Shown here: positions 22,197-38,883 of the stretch, in pieces
Layout of the letters: every line of letters begins with the position of its first letter
How positions within the stretch are numbered: position 1 is the stretch's first letter
IMG/VR virus record: IMGVR_UViG_2609459833_000016
DNA length: 38,883 nucleotides
Strand: one strand, 5' to 3'
Origin: a virus
Taxonomy: Duplodnaviria; Heunggongvirae; Uroviricota; Caudoviricetes
The notes under the pieces: model-generated
What the model saw: the letters and a program-made list of their open reading frames with translations, nothing else
Told to the model about the DNA's origin: nothing
Databases searched by the model: none
Position numbers and translations under genes: made by a program

Positions 22197-22263
22197 ATGG
22201 CACCGGATACCTGGATGAATGCGCGGGCGTTTACTCTTGAGATCAAACAGCAAGGGGGCGTCA

Positions 22264-23997
22264 ATGATTCAGGATGCATTTGTCCGCATAAGGGCAAGAC
22301 AACTTTACTGGCAAGGGTACACACCTGCGGAAATCTCGCAACTGATGGGGATCAGCCAGAACACGATTTACTCATGGAAAAAACGCGATGAGTGGGATGC
22401 CACACCTCCGATCCAGCGGGTCACCCAGTCCATTGATGCGCGCCTGATCCAGCTCACCACAAAAACAGAGAAAAGCGGCAGCGATTTTAAGGAAATTGAC
22501 CTTCTCACGCGCCAGCTGAAAAAACTGAATGACGGTCAGGGAGAACAGGCCGTTTCCGGTAAAAAGCCCCGTAAACGCAGACTGAAAAATCACTTCACCG
22601 AAGAACAGATTGTCGCGCTTCGTGAAAAAATCCTCCCGACGCTGGCGTGGCATCAACGTGAATGGTACGAAAACCGTCACCACCGCAACCGTATGATCCT
22701 GAAGTCGCGTCAGATTGGTGCGACCTGGTATTTTGCGCGCGAGGCGCTCCTTGATGCACTGCGTGATGACGTCTCCGCCGGGTATCAGCGCAACCAGATA
22801 TTTTTATCCGCCTCCCGTCGTCAGGCGTATCAGTTCAAGCATTTTATTCAGCAGGCGGCGCTGGAAGTGGATGTTGAGCTGAAAGGGGGCGACAAGATCG
22901 TGCTGTCCAACGGCGCGGAGCTGCACTTCCTCGGTACGTCAGCTGCCACCGCGCAGTCCTATACCGGTCATCTTAAATTCGACGAATTTTTCTGGGTCAG
23001 TAACTTTGTGAACATCAGGAAGGTTGCCGGGGCAATGGCGACCCTGGAAGGGCTTACGCGCACTTACTTCTCGACGCCGTCGGGGGAAATGCATGAGGCG
23101 TATCAGTTCTGGACGGGGGACCGCTGGAACAGCGAACAGCCACGCTCAAAACGCAGTGAGTTTGATGTTTCACATGCTCACCTGAAGAGGGGCGTGCTCT
23201 TTCCCGACAAAACGTGGCGGCAGATTGTCACCATTGAGGATGCTGTCGCTAACGGATGGCAGTTCACCAGTATTGATGATATTCGCGGCGAAAATACAGA
23301 AAGTGAATTTCGCAATCTGTACATGTGCGAATTTGTCCGTGATGGTGAGGCAGCCTTCAGTCTGAATACGCTCGTCGGGTGCGGTGTTGATGGCTATGAC
23401 GAATGGCCGGACTGGAAGCCTTTTGCTGTCCGCCCCATGGGGGTGAGGGAAGTCTGGCTCGGGTATGACGCCAACGGCAGCAGCGGGAAGGGGGACTGCG
23501 GGGCGCTGTCGGTGTGCGTGCCACCCCTTGTTGCCGGTGGGCGTTTTCGTACGGTGGAAACCGTCAGGGTTCAGGGCATGGAGTTTGAACAGCAGGCCGC
23601 CCTGATTGAGGAGTACACCCAAAAATACAATGTGAAGCATATCGGGATTGATGTCACCGGCGGGAACGGGGGAGGGGGTTATCAGATAGTGAAAAAATTC
23701 TTCCCCCTGGCTGTTCCGTATAACTTTAATATCGCTTCAAAGCGGGCGCTGGTCATGAAGATGCTTCAGGTGGTCCGTGCCGGACGCTGGGAGTATGACC
23801 GCAGCGAGCGCGACCTGGTACAGGCCTTTGCATCGGTGCGAAAAATACAGACGCCCGGCGGCTATATCACCTATGACACTGACCGCTCACGCGGTGTCAG
23901 TCATGGTGATCTCGCCTGGGCAACCATGCTTGCTGTTATCAATGAGCCAATCGGCGCAGAGCGTGAGGATAATCGTGGCTTTGCAATGGAGTTCTGA
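22264..23997 (+). CDS. P: Terminase ATPase (large) subunit P
   Basis: About 577-aa ORF with N-terminal HTH-like segment and ATPase/nuclease-sized body; divergent from O as in P2. ORF track start 22219; 22264 has the better SD. Confidence 0.9.
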   Translation: MIQDAFVRIRARQLYWQGYTPAEISQLMGISQNTIYSWKKRDEWDATPPIQRVTQSIDARLIQLTTKTEKSGSDFKEIDLLTRQLKKLNDGQGEQAVSGKKPRKRRLKNHFTEEQIVALREKILPTLAWHQREWYENRHHRNRMILKSRQIGATWYFAREALLDALRDDVSAGYQRNQIFLSASRRQAYQFKHFIQQAALEVDVELKGGDKIVLSNGAELHFLGTSAATAQSYTGHLKFDEFFWVSNFVNIRKVAGAMATLEGLTRTYFSTPSGEMHEAYQFWTGDRWNSEQPRSKRSEFDVSHAHLKRGVLFPDKTWRQIVTIEDAVANGWQFTSIDDIRGENTESEFRNLYMCEFVRDGEAAFSLNTLVGCGVDGYDEWPDWKPFAVRPMGVREVWLGYDANGSSGKGDCGALSVCVPPLVAGGRFRTVETVRVQGMEFEQQAALIEEYTQKYNVKHIGIDVTGGNGGGGYQIVKKFFPLAVPYNFNIASKRALVMKMLQVVRAGRWEYDRSERDLVQAFASVRKIQTPGGYITYDTDRSRGVSHGDLAWATMLAVINEPIGAEREDNRGFAMEF

Positions 23998-24002
23998 ACA
24001 CA

Positions 24003-25046
24003 ATGAGTAAACGTAAAAAATACACCGGAAAGCGCGGCACGGGCTCACTGGCTGATGCACTGAAATCAGCGCCGTCACTCAGTGCTTTCACGTTTGACGG
24101 TCCTTATGAAGCAAGCCGTCTTGATCTGCTTGATAACATGTCGTGCGCCGATAATGGCCGCTACTATGACACCCCCATGGACTGGAATGCCATTGCTCGC
24201 GCCTCGCGTCGTGCATCATGGCACCAGTCGGCCCTGTATTTTAAGCGTAATGCCCTGAACGGCTGCTTTGTTCCTCATCCGCTACTGTCCCGCCAGGCGT
24301 TTTCCGCGTTTGCGCTGGACTGGTTCGTGTTCGGTAATGCCTATCTTGAAGTCCGCCGCAACAAGTTCGGTGAACCCATTGCGCTTCGTCCTGCGCTGGC
24401 GAAATACACGCGGCGGGGCAGTGATCTCGATACGTACTGGTACCTCAATGATGATGGTTCTGAATTTGCTTTCCGTAAGGGGGCTGTGTGCCACGTTCTG
24501 AACCCCGATATCAACCAGGAAATCTACGGGATGCCGGAGTATATCGGTGGGTTGCTGTCGGTGAGTCTGTCGAACTCAGCGGATACGTTCCGCAAGCTCT
24601 ACTATGACAACGGTTCACATGCCGGGTGCATTGTCTATGTTGGTGCCGCCCAGGCAAACGCTGAAAGCGTGGAAGCCATCAAGAAAACACTCACGGAATC
24701 CCGTGGCAAGGGGGCGTTCCGCAATATCCTTCTGCACGCGCCAGGTGGCGGCAAGGATGGTGTGCAAATACTGCCGTTCCAGCAAATCACCGCGAAGGAC
24801 GAATTCCTTAACATCAAGGGGAGTGCCCGTGACGATATCCTTGCGGCTCACCGTGTACCGCCTCAGCTGATGGGGGCAATGCCTGACGGGAACGCGGCGC
24901 TCGGTGACGTTGAGAAAGCGGCGAGGGTGTTTTTCATCAACGAGCTGCAACCTGTCATGGAGGCCATGAAGCATGTCAATGAATGGCTGGGAAGCGAGGT
25001 AATGCGCTTTAACCCCTATGCGTTGCTTCAGGATAACGCCAGCTGA
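24003..25046 (+). CDS. Q: Portal protein Q
   Basis: 347-aa ORF following P, matching P2 portal size and position next to cos. Confidence 0.9.
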   Translation: MSKRKKYTGKRGTGSLADALKSAPSLSAFTFDGPYEASRLDLLDNMSCADNGRYYDTPMDWNAIARASRRASWHQSALYFKRNALNGCFVPHPLLSRQAFSAFALDWFVFGNAYLEVRRNKFGEPIALRPALAKYTRRGSDLDTYWYLNDDGSEFAFRKGAVCHVLNPDINQEIYGMPEYIGGLLSVSLSNSADTFRKLYYDNGSHAGCIVYVGAAQANAESVEAIKKTLTESRGKGAFRNILLHAPGGGKDGVQILPFQQITAKDEFLNIKGSARDDILAAHRVPPQLMGAMPDGNAALGDVEKAARVFFINELQPVMEAMKHVNEWLGSEVMRFNPYALLQDNAS

Positions 25047-25049
25047 CGC

Positions 25050-25095
25050 GCTTCGCTTGTCGGCTGCTTCGCCGGGGAAAAAAAAATTTATCCCC
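25050..25095. other. Putative cos (cohesive end) region
   Basis: GC-rich motif CGGCTGCTTCGCCGGGGAAAAAAAAA directly after Q, loosely resembling the P2/186 cos core (GGCGnGGCGGGGAAAGCA) at the expected position. Confidence 0.3.
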
Positions 25096-25600
25096 CGACT
25101 CTCCAGCTCTGTCAACGCAATACACCTTTCGCTTCTCAACTCATCAATAACATTTAACATTATGTTTTTCTGTGGTTTTTCTCTTTTTCGCGTCATGCCT
25201 GCGGTGTGATGTTTCCGCATTTAATCCCGACCCCGTAAAACTCAACCAGACGCATTCTGGCGGCCTGTTTTTCTGACTCTGTTTCGGTGTGGTTTTTTCA
25301 GAACCGGCTTCACTGCGTGCGTATCACGCGCAATACGACCCCAAATAAAGCAACCTGCCTTCCACCCCTCAATTCGGGCGCCCTTCCCTCGTCGCCTGCG
25401 CGCTGCAATTGCCTCGTTTTTCGTGCACCGTGCAAACCGGCCTCAGCCAGCGCCGTTACTGGGCTGAATGGGGATGAAACACATAAGAAAAATTGTGCAA
25501 TTTCGTGCGCTTTTGTGCATTTTTTATCTTGCGATTTTTGGGGGTGGGTGGTGATGATAATCATCTGTCTGAATCAGTGGTGTATTGCCGGGTGAGAACT

Positions 25601-26137
25601 GTGAAAAATTACTCATATCCTTATTTAACTTTTGTCACGCTTTCTGTTTTGGGGGGGATTTTTCTTTTTATTTGGTGGCGAAACGATGTTTACAGAATTA
25701 CCTACCTTTATTCGTTCACGACAAACTGCCTTGTTTCAGTGTCTGTGGTGCTTTCGGTTTTTGTCTCACTGTGCCTGTTGAAAAAGAACCTGGTTGATCG
25801 GTCTAAATTTACCGGGGTTACATCGTATCTTAAGTTTTTTTCGGGTATGTGCCTTCTTACCTGGATGATTCTGTTTACCCTCCTGGTTACGCTGATATAT
25901 TTTCTTCCGGGTGAAGATTCATTCTATTCCGCTCCCTATGAGTACAGTCGCGGTAGCTCAAAAAGTTGTTCAGGGGCATTTGTTGATGATCCTGATTTGC
26001 AAAAAACAATCTTTATTTGCTACCCATACGGTGACTATCAGGATGGTAATGTGATTTATGTGAAGAAGCGTGTGAATGCGCTGGGTGCGGTGGTCACCTA
26101 TGCATACGCGACAAGCGGCCGATTTCGGTTTGACTGA
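25601..26137 (+). CDS. Hypothetical membrane protein (3 predicted TM helices + about 80-aa soluble C-terminal domain), AT-rich
   Basis: ORF track 25493..26137 starts at TTG; the AT-rich coding part and a GGTGAG SD suggest a GTG start near 25601. No recognisable family. Confidence 0.5.
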   Translation: MKNYSYPYLTFVTLSVLGGIFLFIWWRNDVYRITYLYSFTTNCLVSVSVVLSVFVSLCLLKKNLVDRSKFTGVTSYLKFFSGMCLLTWMILFTLLVTLIYFLPGEDSFYSAPYEYSRGSSKSCSGAFVDDPDLQKTIFICYPYGDYQDGNVIYVKKRVNALGAVVTYAYATSGRFRFD

Positions 26138-26139
26138 AA

Positions 26140-26176
26140 AAAGAAATCCTGTGTTACCCTCGCTGCTGAGGGTAAC
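26140..26176 (-). terminator. Hairpin terminator between convergent membrane-protein gene and post-A operon
   Basis: GTTACCCTC-GCTGCT-GAGGGTAAC perfect 9-bp stem, with T-run on the minus strand. Confidence 0.5.
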
Positions 26177-26186
26177 ATGCGTGAAG

Positions 26187-26504
26187 TCATCGCCCGGTTC
26201 TTGAGCTGATAATGCTTTGCGTCAGCAGCTGCCAGCCCTCTTTCTGTTGCCCGTACTTGTCCTGATACCTGTTTACCTGCAAGTTTCCGTGCACCAGAAT
26301 CAGATCGCCTTTTCTGTGTTTTGCCAGTTCTTCGTGCTGCTTCCCGAATGAAATAAGGTAAAGCCACATTGTGGTTGGCTGTTCTGCGCCATGGCAGGGT
26401 AGTGATACCGCCAGTTGTGCCGTTGTGACGTTGGTTCCTTTGGTTGTTCTCCTTGTGTTCGGGTCTGCTGCCAGTCGTCCCTCTGTTGCAACCTGTGTTG
26501 GCAT
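26187..26504 (-). CDS. Short SSB-like OB-fold protein (no Gly-rich linker or acidic C-terminal tail)
   Basis: Aligns by eye to the E. coli SSB core: ...FGK..E.....RKG....HG.L....Y.D..GQ..E..... Confidence 0.55.
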   Translation of the reverse strand: MPTQVATEGRLAADPNTRRTTKGTNVTTAQLAVSLPCHGAEQPTTMWLYLISFGKQHEELAKHRKGDLILVHGNLQVNRYQDKYGQQKEGWQLLTQSIISSRTGR

Positions 26505-26536: not shown

Positions 26537-26875
26537 TTAGATGACTGGCAGCTCTTCGCCAGCGCCGTAGATAAACAGAATTCGCTTCATGATTTCGCTT
26601 CGCTTGCAGTCCTGGATTACGGACGGCTTTTGTTGCTGTTCAGCCCGCCGCTCCAGCTCCAGTCGTTCCTTTTCCGTTGGCTTCCGGTAATGCGTTATCT
26701 TGTCCGTGTACCCGTCCACAACCAGCAGCCCTTCGCGTACCATCTTTCCGGCGGCCTGATTAATGATGGTCCTTTTCACGCCCAGTTTTTCAACCAGCTC
26801 TGGCGCGCTGAAGCGTGCGTGCGTTTCCAGGTAGCGTAAAATGATTACCTTTCCGGTCATTCTGGGTGTCTTCAT
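26537..26875 (-). CDS. Hypothetical winged-helix-like DNA-binding protein
   Basis: IILRYLETHARFSAPELVEKLGVKRTIINQAAGKMVREGLLVVDG has HTH/wing character; start chosen at the internal MKTPRMTGK. Confidence 0.45.
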   Translation of the reverse strand: MKTPRMTGKVIILRYLETHARFSAPELVEKLGVKRTIINQAAGKMVREGLLVVDGYTDKITHYRKPTEKERLELERRAEQQQKPSVIQDCKRSEIMKRILFIYGAGEELPVI

Positions 26876-27081
26876 TTGGCGGCTCCTTCGTTGTTCCGGC
26901 GTTCGCGGAGTTCGGTCAGTGCTGCCAGTAAATTTTCCCACCATGTTTCTTCCACAACCGGATTTCGTCGTGAAAGCAGCTGCTGCGCCGACTCAATCAT
27001 TTTCGTAAGCTCTTTGTCGCTGATCCTCCTGATGTCGTTCATGGTGTGCTCCTTCGGTTTGCTGTTTCTGGTCATGTTCAT
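26872..27081 (-). CDS. Hypothetical small protein (69 aa)
   Basis: ORF in the operon downstream of A; helical and charged. Confidence 0.4.
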   Translation of the reverse strand: MNMTRNSKPKEHTMNDIRRISDKELTKMIESAQQLLSRRNPVVEETWWENLLAALTELRERRNNEGAAK

Positions 27082-27090
27082 GGTCTTTTG

Positions 27091-27495
27091 TTACCTGCGT
27101 GATTGCCTGCTGGCGGCCGAATGCACATAGCTGACAATTGCCGCTTTTCGGTTAACGACGGCCAGCGTTCTTGCCAGTTCTTCGTTGAGTTTTCTGGTCT
27201 GTTTTTCGTGGTATGCCTGCATGATTTTTCCTACGGGAGTCAGTGGTTCAGGCTCTGATATGGCGCGACGAGGGCGCACGGCAACGATGAATGCGCTTCT
27301 GTCGGTGTTGGTTCTTGCAGTCAGGATATCGGTCATGACGGTATCTGTGCTGCGATCGGGGTTTGCGATCGTGATCTCCAGTTCGTCGCCTGGCTGTGGT
27401 CGAACACTGACGCCGCTCAGCGTCAGTGCCGGAATGCGTCCACTCATGATGGCGCTGAAATCATGGTGCTGGAGTACACAATGGAATCGTGTCAT
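27091..27495 (-). CDS. Hypothetical protein (134 aa), translationally coupled to gene A
   Basis: Start codon overlaps the A stop by 4 nt. Confidence 0.55.
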   Translation of the reverse strand: MTRFHCVLQHHDFSAIMSGRIPALTLSGVSVRPQPGDELEITIANPDRSTDTVMTDILTARTNTDRSAFIVAVRPRRAISEPEPLTPVGKIMQAYHEKQTRKLNEELARTLAVVNRKAAIVSYVHSAASRQSRR

Positions 27496-30011
27496 GGGTT
27501 CACCTCCGGTTGATCTGCTGCCACCAGGCTTCGTGATTTCTCATCCCAGTGCACAATCCGCCCGTCAGGCAGGCGAACGCGTGCACCTCTGTGTACGGAA
27601 AGTGCTGCGCCACTGTGTAGCTCCTCGCCCGTCGCGCTCAGTGCCGACTTGATTACGGTGGTGGTGACGTCAGTCAGCGGCAATGCTGTACGCACATGTA
27701 TGACGTCATCGGGCGTGGTGGGGCCGCCGGTTTTCACGGTTTTTGTGTCAGATGGCGCATCTTTCAGCTGCCTGGTGAGTTGTTTTCGCTTTGTGGGGGT
27801 CAGTGACCTTAACCACTCACCCAAATCACCTCCCGGGACGACCAGTTTTTGTTCTTTCCTGGTTTCCGGTGGTGGGTTTTTACCCTCTCCGGTGTCTGTT
27901 TTTTCATCATGGGGACAGTTATTGCCACGAGTCCAAGGTGCGGCGAAGCCGCCCCCAACGTCAAAATCCTCGTCCGTGCTGTTGTCGGCTTTCGCTTCTT
28001 TTCTGACCAGTTTCCACTCGTCCGGATGGGTGCAGATGGTGTAGCGCTCGCCGAGTCCGAGCGACGGGGCACAAATTCCGTAGATGCGCTGCGGGAATTC
28101 GCCGTAGTCGTTGGCCTCATCTGCGGTTTCGTATGCGGTGCGGATCAGGTACAGGTTGCGTGGAATGAGCACGCCGCCCTGACGGTTGATGTAGGTGGCA
28201 AAACACCCCACGTCAGCGGCGGCCAGAATGGCGTCAATGTCGTCATGGTCCAGGCGCTTCGGTGATGCGGGGTTACGCTCCATTTGTCCGGCAAGGCGGC
28301 GGAGTTCACGCCATACCTGGCGGGGCGGGATACCGAAGAACTGGAACTGCCGGATGCGGTGGAGACTCGCCCAGGCAATGGCGTTTTCCACGGTTTCCGC
28401 CATGGTTTTTCCCGATTCTTTATCGGCGTAAGGTTTGCCGGTTTTCGGGTCATTGTCGTGAAAGGTGCTGGCGTCCAGGTTCTTGCCAATATAGGTTGCG
28501 ATGTAGCTTGCCGGTGTGCCTTTTGCCGGGTCGATTTTTTCGCACTTGAAGCGCGGAGAAATATCATTCCCCAGTTCTGCGCGATCTGATTTGATTGCTG
28601 CGTCACGCATGATTTCAATGATGCGTTCTTCATTGTCCGGGGCGGTGAATACCAGCATGTGCCAGTGCGGTGTGCCGTCATGGTGTGGCTCAACGGTGCG
28701 CACCCCGTACCAGCTCAGGCCTTCTTTGTTGAGTTTTTTTCTTGCAGCTGCAAAGACGTCGTAAACCAGATAATCACTGGCATCGCGCACGGTGGCACCG
28801 TTGTATTTCGGGTTCAGGCTGCCGTCCTCGTTTACGCTGTGAAAGCGGGAAGGGCAGGTCACTGTCACGAAGAACGCGGAGTCACCACGCGATTCGGCGA
28901 CCTGTTCCATCCCTCTGACGCAGGCCATCATCTCGTTGCGGCGGTTGCGCGGATTCCCCAGCCCTGACCAGTACACGTCCTCCAGGCTCAGGCGTTCACC
29001 GTCTTCGTTTTCAATGTCCCAGCTTTTGAGAAAATCACGGGTGCGCTGGCGTTTCTCCCGGAATTCCTGGAGTGACTCATGGCTGATGTAGGGGGATGCC
29101 TTGCGCGATACTCTTCCGGCGGCACGCAGTAATTCCTCCCGCCAGAGATCAGCGAGGTGGCGCAGCTGGTTGTTCCACCAGGTGGCGCAGGTGATACGCA
29201 TTACCGCGCCCGGTACCAGTTCAGGGTCTGGTGCCGTGCGGCGGTCACGTCTGATCTCGAGTGACGGCCAGTATGGTGGGTTCACGCCCAGTTTTATTGC
29301 CATGCGCGCCAGCTGCTGGTAAGTCAGCAACCAGGTAAACAGGTTATCGTCGCCTTTTCCTGTCCGCTCAGTAACTTCATCACATATGCGTTCCAGTTCG
29401 GTGGAAAATGCCGCCGCCGTTAGTGTGGCAAGGCGCTGAATTTGATCACGGTTGAGTTGTGGCAGCATGAGTAATTCATCAAGGCGATGGCGTGCTGCGG
29501 TGGCTTTGAATGCCGTCGTGGCGAAGCATTCATTCACCTGTTCGATGCGTTTCAGGCGTGTGCGCAGTCCACGGCGAACGAAGTTATCGGCCACGTGAGT
29601 GTTGTTGTTTTTCACGCCTTCATTGCGGGCGCTTTGTTGTTTGCGGTTTAAACGCGCCAGATCACGAATGAGCACGTTGCCAAGAAACGAGGGCAGGGCG
29701 CGAAGTTCTGCCATGGCTTCCGATACCACCGTGGGCGGATTCTCGCGTTTGTGCTTCGCCAGTTTTTCCAGTCTGACCCGACGCTCTTCGTCGTGGTGAA
29801 GATGCGAATTAATTCGCTTGCCTTCGTCTGTGTTTGTCAGGAAGGAGACGGTTTCTTCATCCAGTCTGGCATCAATGCGAATGTCCTCGTTGATGTAGCT
29901 CTGAATGGCCTGGCGTAATGCGGTTGGTTGTGCTCTGCCGAACGTTTCAGGATCGATAACCGGTAGCGGTGCGTTCCACGGGTACGCCAGCTGTGCATTG
30001 CGGTCACTCAT
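27492..30011 (-). CDS. A: Replication initiation endonuclease A (rolling-circle HUH relaxase-type)
   Basis: 839-aa ORF with HUH motif region (VEPHHDGTPHWHMLVF) and downstream catalytic Tyr region. Confidence 0.9.
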   Translation of the reverse strand: MSDRNAQLAYPWNAPLPVIDPETFGRAQPTALRQAIQSYINEDIRIDARLDEETVSFLTNTDEGKRINSHLHHDEERRVRLEKLAKHKRENPPTVVSEAMAELRALPSFLGNVLIRDLARLNRKQQSARNEGVKNNNTHVADNFVRRGLRTRLKRIEQVNECFATTAFKATAARHRLDELLMLPQLNRDQIQRLATLTAAAFSTELERICDEVTERTGKGDDNLFTWLLTYQQLARMAIKLGVNPPYWPSLEIRRDRRTAPDPELVPGAVMRITCATWWNNQLRHLADLWREELLRAAGRVSRKASPYISHESLQEFREKRQRTRDFLKSWDIENEDGERLSLEDVYWSGLGNPRNRRNEMMACVRGMEQVAESRGDSAFFVTVTCPSRFHSVNEDGSLNPKYNGATVRDASDYLVYDVFAAARKKLNKEGLSWYGVRTVEPHHDGTPHWHMLVFTAPDNEERIIEIMRDAAIKSDRAELGNDISPRFKCEKIDPAKGTPASYIATYIGKNLDASTFHDNDPKTGKPYADKESGKTMAETVENAIAWASLHRIRQFQFFGIPPRQVWRELRRLAGQMERNPASPKRLDHDDIDAILAAADVGCFATYINRQGGVLIPRNLYLIRTAYETADEANDYGEFPQRIYGICAPSLGLGERYTICTHPDEWKLVRKEAKADNSTDEDFDVGGGFAAPWTRGNNCPHDEKTDTGEGKNPPPETRKEQKLVVPGGDLGEWLRSLTPTKRKQLTRQLKDAPSDTKTVKTGGPTTPDDVIHVRTALPLTDVTTTVIKSALSATGEELHSGAALSVHRGARVRLPDGRIVHWDEKSRSLVAADQPEVNP

Positions 30012-32363: not shown

Positions 32364-33344
32364 TCACGTACTGGCAGGGGTAAACATCACGCTGTAAGTT
32401 GCATCTCCCGTTACAGGTCCGCAGTCCGGGCAGTAGCCACCGCCATGGTGACCGCAGGCGTCGCACTGTCTCAGGGTGGCGATAACCTCCGGTGCTGATT
32501 CCCGGGTTCTTGCGCCAACGCTTCGTGGTGCCTGTATGCAGTTCATCCGGTAACCCCGATAAATGCGTCGTGTTTCCGGTGTGTCGGAATTGGAGATGGT
32601 GATGCTGGTCATGCCGCCCGTTTCCTGTGAAAGGCGGTCAAGCGCTGCCCTCAGACGAACGTGCTCGTCTTCATCGAATGGTTTTCCGTAGGCGGTAAAA
32701 TTGTCCCGGCCACTGAATTGCAGGTAAGGGGGATCGCAGTACACGCAAAGCGTGTTGCCCATGCCGAACAGGTGACTGGCAGAGTTCAGCGTATCCTTAA
32801 AATCTGCGTGGATAAGCAGCGTTCGGGTGCTGTTTGCCTTGTCTGCAAATGCGCGGATTTCACGCTCAGGGAAGTAGGGCTTGCGGTAGCAGCCGAAAGG
32901 CACGTTAAAATCGCCTTTTCCGTTCACGCGGAACAAACCGTTAAAGCTGTGTCGGTTCAGGTACAAAAACATGGCGGCCAGTCGCAGTTCACGGCGGTCG
33001 CTTATTCCCGTTCTGCTGTTCAGGAAGGCATGATTCTCTGCGTTAAAGGTTTCGCGAATGATGAGATAGTCACCCCTGTTGTTGTGGTTCAGGAACAGGG
33101 TTTTCGCCTCGTCGATCAGGCTGTCGGAGTTGTCCCTGGCTTGCCGGTAGAAATTAATCAGCGCACCATTGGAATCACCCAGGATGTAACGCTTGTAACT
33201 GGTGTTCATGAATACCGATGCGCCACCCACAAACGGCTCAACCAGGCAGTCTGCTTCTGGCAGATGCGCCTTCAGTGTGTTCATGATGCGACTTTTTCCG
33301 CCCACCCATTTAAGCGGCGTGCCGGATAACAGTTCTTTGCTCAT
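32364..33344 (-). CDS. dam: DNA adenine methyltransferase (Dam family) with C-terminal Cys-rich zinc-ribbon-like extension
   Basis: Motif I LVEPFVGGASVF and motif IV VYCDPPY; C-terminal CDACGHHGGGYCPDCG. Confidence 0.85.
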   Translation of the reverse strand: MSKELLSGTPLKWVGGKSRIMNTLKAHLPEADCLVEPFVGGASVFMNTSYKRYILGDSNGALINFYRQARDNSDSLIDEAKTLFLNHNNRGDYLIIRETFNAENHAFLNSRTGISDRRELRLAAMFLYLNRHSFNGLFRVNGKGDFNVPFGCYRKPYFPEREIRAFADKANSTRTLLIHADFKDTLNSASHLFGMGNTLCVYCDPPYLQFSGRDNFTAYGKPFDEDEHVRLRAALDRLSQETGGMTSITISNSDTPETRRIYRGYRMNCIQAPRSVGARTRESAPEVIATLRQCDACGHHGGGYCPDCGPVTGDATYSVMFTPAST

Positions 33345-33577: not shown

Positions 33578-34168
33578 TCATATGTTCAGGAATGGTGTTG
33601 TGAAGCGCTGCCAGATTTCTGACACGACCTTTGCCTGGTAAACGGCATCGCCCAGTGCAGTGTGAGCAATAGCCTCCTTTCCTGATCTGCCTGGCATTTT
33701 CCATCCAGTTGATTCAGCCATGGCGATAAGCGGGCGCATACAGCGCTCGTTCCAGTAGCACCAGGGGATGCTTTTTTCTCCGGCTGTGCGTGTTATGGCG
33801 GATTTCAGGATCGGGAAATCGAAGGATGCGCCTTTGCACCATATGGTCAGTGAATTGCCCGGGCTTTCGTCATGCATATTGCGTGAAATGAACGCCAGAA
33901 ATTCGGTTACTGCCGCAAGCTCTGTTCCCTCTGCGTTGCGCAGGCAGGATCTGGCCTCCACGGATTGTCCGGCCCACCATACAGCGGTGGCTGCATTGAC
34001 GGTTCCGCCGTTGCGTTCTGAATCCACCGGGTCGATGAATTTCTCAAACTGCTTGCCCAGCTTTCCGGTGAACGGGTCGAAAAACACCGCCCCAATCGCG
34101 AATATGGCTGCGCCCGGTCCGTTACCCAGTGTTTCGGTGTCAATCATGAGATGGTTCATTATGCGCAC
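33578..34168 (-). CDS. DEDD-family 3'-5' exonuclease (DnaQ-like)
   Basis: Exo I motif MIDTETLG and Exo III-like HTALGDAVYQ. Confidence 0.75.
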   Translation of the reverse strand: MRIMNHLMIDTETLGNGPGAAIFAIGAVFFDPFTGKLGKQFEKFIDPVDSERNGGTVNAATAVWWAGQSVEARSCLRNAEGTELAAVTEFLAFISRNMHDESPGNSLTIWCKGASFDFPILKSAITRTAGEKSIPWCYWNERCMRPLIAMAESTGWKMPGRSGKEAIAHTALGDAVYQAKVVSEIWQRFTTPFLNI

Positions 34169-36326: not shown

Positions 36327-36731
36327 ATGAAAAATGATATTGGCCAACGGTTGCGTGAGGAAAGGGAACGGCTGGGTCTTAGCCAAGTCGCTATGAGTGA
36401 TATTGGTGGGGTTAAAAAGTTAACCCAACTTAGATATGAGAAAGGGGATAGCTTTCCTGATGCGGCGTACTTATCAGCGTTGTCGCGTTTTGGCCTTGAT
36501 GTTCAGTATGTCGTGTTGGGAATTCATTCACCTGAAACTTATAACGATGATGAGCAGGAGTTGATCACACGTTTTCGGAGTGCCTCACTAGATGTGAAAA
36601 ACGCGGTGATTGGTGCTTTGAAAGGTGCAGTCACTGAAAAGGAGAGTCAGTCATCAGGGGGAGGGTTAAATATCTCTGGCGGGAATAACCGCATCGCAGG
36701 CCGTGACTATAACGAAACAAAGGGTAAGTGA
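36327..36731 (+). CDS. C: Immunity repressor (XRE-family HTH, C/CI-like)
   Basis: N-terminal HTH (LREERERLGLSQVAMSDIGGVKKLTQLRYEKG); divergent from the early operon and same strand as int. Confidence 0.75.
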   Translation: MKNDIGQRLREERERLGLSQVAMSDIGGVKKLTQLRYEKGDSFPDAAYLSALSRFGLDVQYVVLGIHSPETYNDDEQELITRFRSASLDVKNAVIGALKGAVTEKESQSSGGGLNISGGNNRIAGRDYNETKGK

Positions 36732-37589: not shown

Positions 37590-37847
37590 ATGGTAACTAA
37601 TCCGCAAATTCCATTAATTGGTTTATATGTATCTAAAGTTAATCCATCTAATCGTATAGTTGTTACTAATGTTCATATTGTCAAGGACGATGACGATGAG
37701 CCCGGAGATCTTCCTTTCTATTTGGTTACTTTTGTAAATGAGGGGGATGAGGATGATATGTCGGCTCCTTCTTGGGAGCTTGATCCCGATGAATGGGAGC
37801 AGTTAGTTGATGAAAAGCTCTTTATGCGGGTTGAGCAACCATCTTAA
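37590..37847 (+). CDS. Hypothetical highly acidic small protein (85 aa)
   Basis: ORF with Asp/Glu-rich segments (DDDDEPGD, EGDEDD, ELDPDEWE) between the repressor region and int. Confidence 0.5.
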   Translation: MVTNPQIPLIGLYVSKVNPSNRIVVTNVHIVKDDDDEPGDLPFYLVTFVNEGDEDDMSAPSWELDPDEWEQLVDEKLFMRVEQPS

Positions 37848-37881
37848 TCACGAAAATTTTCCTTGGTGTGCACTTTTTAAT

Positions 37882-38883
37882 ATGTCTGTTCGTAAACTAT
37901 CTACTGGTAAATGGCTCTGTGAATGCTATCCCTACGGAGCAGCAGGAAAACGCATTCGTAAGCAGTTTGCTACTAAAGGTGAGGCGCTCTCTTATGAGCG
38001 CCGTTTAATGAACGGTAATTTAGGGGGCGAGTTTCAGGATGGTTCTGGCCCCCGTCTTTCCGAGTTGGTTGCTCGCTGGTTTGAAATGTACGGTAAAACG
38101 TTGTCTTCCGGTGAAGAGCGCAAGGCTAAACTTGAGGCGATTTGTTCTAGGTTGGGTGATCCGTTTGCTTCTCAATTTGATAAAAATATGTTTGCCATCT
38201 ACAGGGAGCGGCGGTTATCAGGTGAATGGAATCCAAAGGGGAAGAAAAAACTTAGTGAAGCAACCGTTAATCGCGAACAGTCATATTTACATGCTGTTTT
38301 TGCTGAACTGAAGCGCCTTGGGGAGTGGTCTGGTGAAAATCCATTGACAGGTATTCGCAAGTTTCGTGAGGAAGAAAAGGAACAGGCGTTTCTGTATGCA
38401 GATGAGATTGAACGCCTTCTGATTGCATGTGATGAGTCACGGAATAAAGATTTGGGTGTTGTCGTCCGTATTGGGCTTGCGACTGGTGCCAGGTGGAGTG
38501 AAGCAGAGGGATTAAAGCAATCTCAAATACTGCCTGGACGAATCACATTTGTTAAAACCAAAGGAAAGAAGAACCGCACTGTACCTATTTCACCTCAATT
38601 GCAGGCCATGCTTCCTAAAAAACGCGGGGCGCTTTTTTCACCATGTTATGAGGCTTTTGACGCCGCTATTAAGAGAGCAAAGATCGAACTTCCTGACGGA
38701 CAATTAACTCATGTGCTACGTCATACGTTTGCCAGCCATTTTATGATGCGGGGAGGAAATATTCTTGTGTTGCAAAAAATACTGGGGCATAGCGATATAA
38801 AAATGACTATGCGTTATGCACACTTTGCGCCGGGTCATTTAGAGGCTGCTGTTGAACTGAATCCCTTTGACAATAGAGGGTAA
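37882..38883 (+). CDS. int: Tyrosine-type site-specific integrase (P2 Int family)
   Basis: C-terminal catalytic region HVLRHTFASHFMMRGGNILVLQKILGHSDIKMTMRYAHF (R..H-x-x-R...Y); start chosen at MSVRKL; stop codon is the last codon of the window. Confidence 0.9.
   Translation: MSVRKLSTGKWLCECYPYGAAGKRIRKQFATKGEALSYERRLMNGNLGGEFQDGSGPRLSELVARWFEMYGKTLSSGEERKAKLEAICSRLGDPFASQFDKNMFAIYRERRLSGEWNPKGKKKLSEATVNREQSYLHAVFAELKRLGEWSGENPLTGIRKFREEEKEQAFLYADEIERLLIACDESRNKDLGVVVRIGLATGARWSEAEGLKQSQILPGRITFVKTKGKKNRTVPISPQLQAMLPKKRGALFSPCYEAFDAAIKRAKIELPDGQLTHVLRHTFASHFMMRGGNILVLQKILGHSDIKMTMRYAHFAPGHLEAAVELNPFDNRG

Follow-up and report, generated by a model that had tools for sequence, protein, structure and literature searches.

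A small membrane-protein gene in the cargo slot beside cos in a P2-like prophage as a candidate superinfection-exclusion factor

The interval between the portal gene Q and the replication gene A is a defence hotspot in P2-like phages (Rousset et al., 2022; PMC9122126). This article describes a small membrane-protein gene located in this interval of the IMG/VR virus record IMGVR_UViG_2609459833_000016, whose 38,883 nucleotides (hereafter the window) represent a complete P2-like prophage having P88-like phages (Xuanwuvirus) as its nearest named relatives. The gene spans positions 25601-26137 on the plus strand, from a GTG start to a TGA stop codon, and its 178-aa product corresponds to RefSeq protein WP_000801013.1. 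To its left two genes are transcribed rightward, that of the terminase ATPase (22219-23997) and that of the portal protein (24003-25046). To its right comes a converging minus-strand operon with the genes of a single-stranded DNA-binding protein (SSB, 26187-26504) and of a MarR/Ren-like winged-helix protein, which stands at the A operon's tail (26537-26944), a pair of small genes and the gene of the A replication endonuclease, of 839 aa (27492-30011). The sequence-only reading of this DNA had described an AT-rich gene opposite in strand to the replication operon and separated from the portal gene by about 500 bp of non-coding DNA. This picture is confirmed: the gene has a GC content of 0.42 against 0.54 for the prophage, the gap measures 554 bp and the open reading frames (ORFs) within it match no PHROG family.

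The ORF is a real gene and not a chance reading frame. The NCBI Prokaryotic Genome Annotation Pipeline (PGAP) makes the same 25601-26137 call in identical prophages, and homologues start by ATG at MKKDSYPYL or MKNYSYPYL, in register with GTG 25601, for which reason this codon is taken as the correct start and the coordinates proposed initially stand. Two other starts were discarded: the TTG at 25493, where the mechanical ORF opens (a 214-aa reading), is ruled out by the ATG-initiated homologues, and the internal Met89, which would give a short one-helix isoform, is not kept in other alleles. Between the allele of an Escherichia coli P2-like prophage (L013) and that of the lambdoid phage 434, synonymous divergence (dS) is 1.2 and the ratio of nonsynonymous to synonymous changes (dN/dS) is 0.10, with an overall span of 0.07-0.16; the ratio is low both in the membrane half (0.12) and in the C-terminal half (0.07), and therefore both are under purifying selection. 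A dN/dS of about 0.1 between such diverged alleles, together with the size of the family, speaks for a genuine reading frame. Start calls differ among annotations of the 434-type allele (188, 200 or 223 aa; L003:4965-5531, L025:5066-5668), and alignment indicates a 176-aa product starting MKKDSYPYL. A 56-aa "membrane protein" ORF annotated upstream in phage 434 overlaps a decayed repeat block and has no family match.

An exhaustive profile search retrieved 58 representatives at 50% identity from Enterobacterales and Pseudomonas, with named members in Escherichia, Shigella, Salmonella, Klebsiella, Phytobacter/Citrobacter, Hafnia, Providencia and Pseudomonas. Near-full-length representatives measure ~165-200 aa and all those examined share the same architecture. 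To call the gene an orphan was thus too strong, the family being one without characterized relatives. The statement that its product shows no recognizable motif was borne out, since searches of the protein against Pfam, NCBIfam and PADLOC gave no match beyond noise, as did Pfam with all 28 aligned family members; a profile search of PDB sequences returned hydrophobic noise only. In PHROG only phrog_1416, of unknown function, is matched (E 1e-49). Its profile of 90 positions covers the C-terminal half alone because phage annotators chose an internal Met. A Foldseek search of BFVD produced no hit at E up to 0.001, with TM-scores up to 0.31. Literature searches for WP_000801013, WP_000120056 and WP_000120065 found no mention, and for phage mEp332, which carries a homologue, one quantitative PCR methods paper only; WP_000801013 is not in the DefensePredictor supplements. 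In the supplementary table of Rousset et al. (2022; PMC9122126) it is listed in Q-to-A loci only as "hypothetical" and is not among the cloned systems.

The architecture anticipated from the sequence, three transmembrane (TM) helices followed by a soluble C-terminal domain of about 80 aa, was recovered by hydropathy and AlphaFold2. Hydrophobic segments occur at residues ~8-26, 41-60 and 82-102 and modelled helices at 5-30, 38-61 and 73-101, with a full-length predicted local distance difference test (pLDDT) value of 72. The three-helix region (25622-25906, plus strand) contains a loop between TM2 and TM3 with five Lys/Arg, and the stretch right behind TM3 is acidic; Lys+Arg counts favour an N-in/C-out topology in 27 of 28 diverse family members. 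The C-terminal domain (residues 103-178; 25907-26134, plus strand) is delimited by the model, the conserved columns and phrog_1416. Its 75 residues are the best-conserved part of the protein and carry the motif YFLPGE...SCSGA.V.DP.L...I.IC.P....K..N.LG.VV. When modelled alone this domain forms a five-stranded small beta-barrel with a pLDDT of 87.8. C140 is invariant and C123 near-invariant, and exactly two cysteines are found in the domain of 27/28 members, a pattern that fits a periplasmic disulfide; from the charge bias and the cysteine pair the barrel is predicted to face the periplasm. The full-length model has a short strand in the loop joining TM1 and TM2, which would lie on the same side of the membrane. 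The models thus support well the description of a small inner-membrane protein with three helices and the beta-barrel as its sole soluble part.

The position of the gene corresponds to that of old and tin in P2, as had been pointed out: the P2 reference layout consists of Q, tQ, cos and then the old-tin transcript, which starts ~150 bp from cosR and converges on orf91 and A. Comparison of the Q-to-A interval across relatives located the gene at the same slot and in the same orientation in P2-like prophages of Salmonella, E. coli and Klebsiella, while P88 and the Enterobacter phage phiT5282H (Novemvirus) lack it. The notion of a variable cargo site is reinforced by two Salmonella P2-like prophages (L010 and L011) with portals 40% and terminases 43% identical, which encode a 100% identical protein on a ~815-bp cassette of 96.6% nucleotide identity. 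Likewise, the portal in STEC2018-607 is 84% identical to that of the window at the nucleotide level, yet a single synonymous change separates the two copies of the gene. In the lambdoid phages 434, 2B8 and mEp332 the gene is located between xis and exo, on the strand opposite to the pL operon, and the cassette of 434 is 76% identical to that of the E. coli prophage L013 from 137 bp before the ATG to ~105 bp beyond the stop. Travel of the gene as a ~0.8-kb cassette among P2-like and lambdoid phages is therefore well supported by these alignments, and the gene is regarded as a moron, an add-on gene with putative expression signals of its own, inserted in the cos-proximal cargo slot. The slot holds additional genes in STEC2018-607 and Klebsiella. 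A second cargo slot was noticed on the portal side of cos, where STEC2018-607 carries, between the tQ hairpin and cos, a 167-aa phrog_5091 gene of unknown function (L006:3329-3832, minus strand); in the Klebsiella prophage the equivalent interval, from the portal to the gene of interest (L021:4281-7623, minus strand), encodes a 790-aa AAA_16 protein and a 279-aa protein.

The 554-bp gap contains several elements. The motif just past the portal gene that was initially taken for cos is instead a tQ-like hairpin (25071-25097, plus strand), which folds at the position of the annotated tQ terminator of P2 and is kept in P88, there with a perfect stem. The probable cos region is a conserved non-coding block at 25375-25520, common to three Peduoviridae genera as represented by the window phage, P88 and phiT5282H. 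It ends in three (T/C)(T/C)GTGC(A/G) repeats with 10-nt spacing (25493-25519, plus strand), which a scan of all loci detected once per P2-like locus, 106-108 nt before the gene where the gene is present, and also in P88 and phiT5282H. In P2, ATGCA repeats can be read at the matching place. Judging from this arrangement, the repeat block is probably the terminase-recognition part of cos in P88-like phages. With respect to the cut site, the linear P88_4B11 record has its ends at positions that correspond to ~25474/25475. Since a sister record from the same study begins inside lambda cos, the records of this study seem to have been oriented on that site; the alternative is a C-rich motif resembling that of P2 (25375-25400). 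The window does not contain the 19-mer of the P2 cohesive end, even when 3 mismatches are allowed, and its blastn comparison with the P2 cos region yielded short chance matches only, so that the cut site cannot be placed by homology with P2. The linear record of phage 500465-2 was discarded as an end marker, as it is not cos-terminated. In some identical prophages PGAP annotates an 84-aa hypothetical protein (WP_447310369.1; 25310-25564, minus strand), which overlaps the cos block, has no family match and is probably spurious.

Two independently transferred cassettes have their left ends at, or close to, the place to which the P88_4B11 termini map (window ~25474). The cassette shared by the two Salmonella prophages (L010:7884/L011:7874) starts within ~3 nt of it; between 434 and L013 (L003:~4864/L013:7864) a weaker similarity, 12/20 positions in an alignment read by eye, reaches 15-19 nt further left, a distance comparable to a cohesive end of 19 nt such as that of P2. 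Taking the termini of this one record as a guide, the cassette may represent the last ~0.8 kb of DNA from a P2-like virion, picked up when its free end recombined.

Regarding expression signals, L013 and 434 share the nearly invariant segment CTGTTTTCTGCGCAAAAAACGGATGGTAAATTTGT 35-70 nt upstream of the ATG, which holds an extended -10 element (TGgTAAATT) and is conserved far above synonymous sites. Aligned with it in the window is GATAAT (25556-25561, plus strand), which lacks a good -35 and is a candidate -10 hexamer of the gene's own promoter; a possible Shine-Dalgarno sequence, GGTGAG (25591-25596, plus strand), can be read 4 nt before the GTG. A shared hairpin terminator had been predicted between the gene and the converging operon. 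A stable GC-rich hairpin with a 10-11 bp stem does lie between the stop codon and the SSB gene (26151-26178; dG -22.5 kcal/mol on the plus and -19.6 kcal/mol on the minus strand, z about -3); as a canonical terminator of this gene it does not qualify, given that the plus strand has no U-run. On the minus strand a U-run occurs 6 nt past the stem, so that the idea of a shared terminator holds only in part. A terminator scan did not call this hairpin, and Rfam applied to 24900-26400 returned only a spurious mir-84 match.

The alleles differ widely in distribution. Of 5426 complete E. coli genomes, 29 contain the allele of the window, and its portal lineage is carried by the same number. The 434-type allele, 52% identical, is present in 915 of the 5426 (~17%), and in the two genomes examined it resides in a lambdoid prophage beside ybhC; one of these two is the decayed, cryptic prophage of O157:H7 at att-lambda. 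The contexts have no conserved partner gene in common, and the gene therefore works singly.

Taken together, these features lead us to propose, tentatively and at somewhat less than even confidence, that the protein is a prophage-expressed superinfection-exclusion factor acting at the envelope and a member of a new family. According to this proposal, the lysogen would make the protein from its own weak promoter. The periplasmic barrel, along with the conserved TM1-TM2 loop, would then bind something on which incoming phages depend for their passage through the periplasm and the inner membrane. This could be a phage product, such as a tape-measure or ejection protein, or else a cofactor of the host located in its inner membrane or periplasm, and genome entry would be stopped without killing the cell. 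Exclusion at the envelope is favoured because the only folded soluble part is predicted to be periplasmic and is the most conserved, because there is no cytoplasmic sensing domain, and because the gene is single, prophage-borne, mobile and kept in decayed prophages. A more specific version, in which a disulfide-bonded, periplasmic OB-like (oligonucleotide/oligosaccharide-binding-like) barrel on a three-helix anchor intercepts phage DNA delivery and the gene spreads as the terminal ~0.8 kb of P2-like virion DNA, is considered doubtful.

Several observations weigh against envelope exclusion. The annotated exclusion families of PHROG are not matched, and PADLOC-DB v2 (5027 models) contains no matching family at E up to 10. 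Homology to the P22 exclusion protein SieA was considered and rejected, as hhalign of the family profile against it gave a probability of 2.4% and no SieA PHROG was matched. A strict promoter scan detected nothing upstream of the gene, and expression from the prophage is thus presumed. In a Providencia prophage the gene belongs to the late operon, flanked by the Q antiterminator and holin genes, a position atypical for a gene expressed by the prophage. Finally, some homologues lie outside recognizable prophages, in Hafnia, Phytobacter and Pseudomonas contexts, and these leave room for a function in the host envelope.

The Hafnia and Pseudomonas contexts sustain the strongest of the other explanations, namely that the protein is a lysogenic-conversion or host-fitness factor unrelated to phages, whose periplasmic barrel protects or modifies the envelope, for instance by conferring immunity to colicins, tailocins or contact-dependent toxins that act from the periplasm, by providing stress or serum resistance as lambda bor and lom do, or by modulating an inner-membrane complex. 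In Hafnia alvei the homologue occupies the same chromosomal place in 24 of 24 contigs read, next to phoPQ and with no recognizable phage genes near. The genes behind it encode first a lipoprotein whose fold resembles TolA domain III and then an outer-membrane protein of the Ail/Lom type, so that the group looks like a small set of envelope-acting genes. The lipoprotein (L018:8571-8975, plus strand) has 134 aa and the lipobox LVGC, and its residues 32-127 match TolA domain III. The Pseudomonas copy overlaps a nucleotidyltransferase (NTP-transferase) gene and precedes a PMT-family glycosyltransferase gene. Retention in the cryptic O157:H7 prophage agrees with this explanation as well; along with the spread of the 434-type allele it suggests a benefit to the host, which is also counted in favour of exclusion. 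On the other hand, the majority of the contexts examined are cargo slots of prophages where defence genes are known to occur, and the Phytobacter setting (metagenome contigs L019/L020) is one linked to phage conflict: there the homologue stands beside two large DUF4062/TPR NTPase genes and, in one variant, also a Lactamase_B gene resembling the anti-Pycsar protein Apyc1. A host function unrelated to phages is judged unlikely.

Much less probable is an abortive-infection effector that would permeabilize or depolarize the inner membrane after sensing infection, the cell dying before progeny is formed. Transmembrane proteins are common effectors in hotspot systems (PMC9122126), old and tin, which occupy this same slot in P2, act after DNA entry, and a GTG start combined with a weak promoter fits a product toxic in excess. 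However, a single gene product with no sizeable cytoplasmic domain would make intracellular sensing impossible, contexts share no conserved partner gene, and it is the barrel rather than the helices that is most conserved; exclusion at the envelope is preferred over abortive infection because the only soluble domain is predicted to be periplasmic.

Class I holins have three helices, an N-out/C-in topology and a short charged cytoplasmic C-terminus. A role in the phage life cycle, as an antiholin-like regulator of lysis timing or an establishment helper, would agree with the Providencia homologue directly upstream of a holin, with a small size and three helices that recall these holins and with the place of the gene as the first one beside the virion DNA end in P2-like phages, but it is improbable, since Pfam and PHROG give no holin or lysis family match, the predicted N-in/C-out topology and folded 75-aa periplasmic domain are unlike class I holins, P88 and phiT5282H do without the gene, and in P2-like and 434-type phages it forms a separate opposite-strand unit away from the lysis genes.

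The remainder of the prophage offers additional observations. The prophage adjoins the tRNA genes Gly(GCC)-Cys(GCA)-Leu(UAA) (701-1003) and its integrase gene is at the window end (37807-38883). The segment 34400-38883, which encodes the integrase and a helix-turn-helix protein (36327-36731) that is a possible repressor, has a GC content of 0.36-0.46, far under that of the rest of the prophage. For the winged-helix protein at 26537-26944 (minus strand) the PHROG match is phrog_142, "Ren-like exclusion protein" (E 3e-29), with a weak match to MarR_2 besides; it may represent another exclusion-related gene, and PGAP places its start later (339 nt). In the early operon a Dam-type N6-adenine methyltransferase and an Rv2179c-like 3'-5' exonuclease (32364-33344 and 33578-34168, minus strand) could serve counter-defence.

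Which phages are able to infect clinical E. coli, Salmonella and Klebsiella depends in part on prophage genes that stop infection at the envelope, and such genes therefore bear on phage therapy; most of the known examples are single families found by chance. The family described here is uncharacterized, real and well defined; it has no annotation in domain or defence databases, yet its location is a proven defence hotspot, P2-like and lambdoid phages exchange it, and a large share of E. coli genomes, O157:H7 included, retain it. As a putative defence gene it is a good candidate for experiments. If the exclusion proposal is true, this would be a new and very common envelope-level exclusion family, considering the share of E. 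coli genomes with the 434-type allele alone. If the cassettes indeed derive from virion ends, recombination initiated at the cos end could explain defence hotspots beside cos, the cassette boundary at the virion DNA end being a testable reason for cargo hotspots that adjoin this site.

The protein can be compared with several known systems. In a comparison with DUF1093 (YxeA-like) and other small beta-barrel proteins anchored in membranes, the best structural matches are 3npp and 2k5q, with no solved structure being close. As in the morons of lambdoid phages (lom, bor, HK97 gp15; Hendrix-type), the gene has a lower GC content, would constitute a separate transcription unit, is patchily present among relatives and occupies classic moron sites (xis-exo and Q-holin), although the term denotes a genetic arrangement and is silent on mechanism. 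With old and tin of P2 it shares a location after Q, tQ and cos and transcription away from cos, converging on the end of the A operon; it differs in being one small membrane protein, since the Pfam, NCBIfam and PADLOC searches revealed neither an ATPase/TOPRIM domain nor similarity to Tin, and in its predicted action at the envelope rather than inside the cell. T4 Sp and Imm and HK97 gp15 are small phage proteins anchored in the inner membrane that block genome entry from the periplasmic side (PMC11436027). The protein studied here resembles them in size, membrane location and predicted periplasmic exposure, whereas the number of helices and the soluble fold are different and no PHROG of those families is matched. 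P22 SieA, an inner-membrane protein of 162-164 aa with three predicted helices, blocks DNA injection (PMC10883804). In SieA the soluble stretch, of ~60 aa, lies between TM1 and TM2 and there is no folded C-terminal domain, unlike the C-terminal barrel of this family; both are nevertheless prophage-borne proteins of 160-180 aa with three predicted helices, encoded in a transcription unit of their own, a presumed one in the case of the present gene (PMC10883804).

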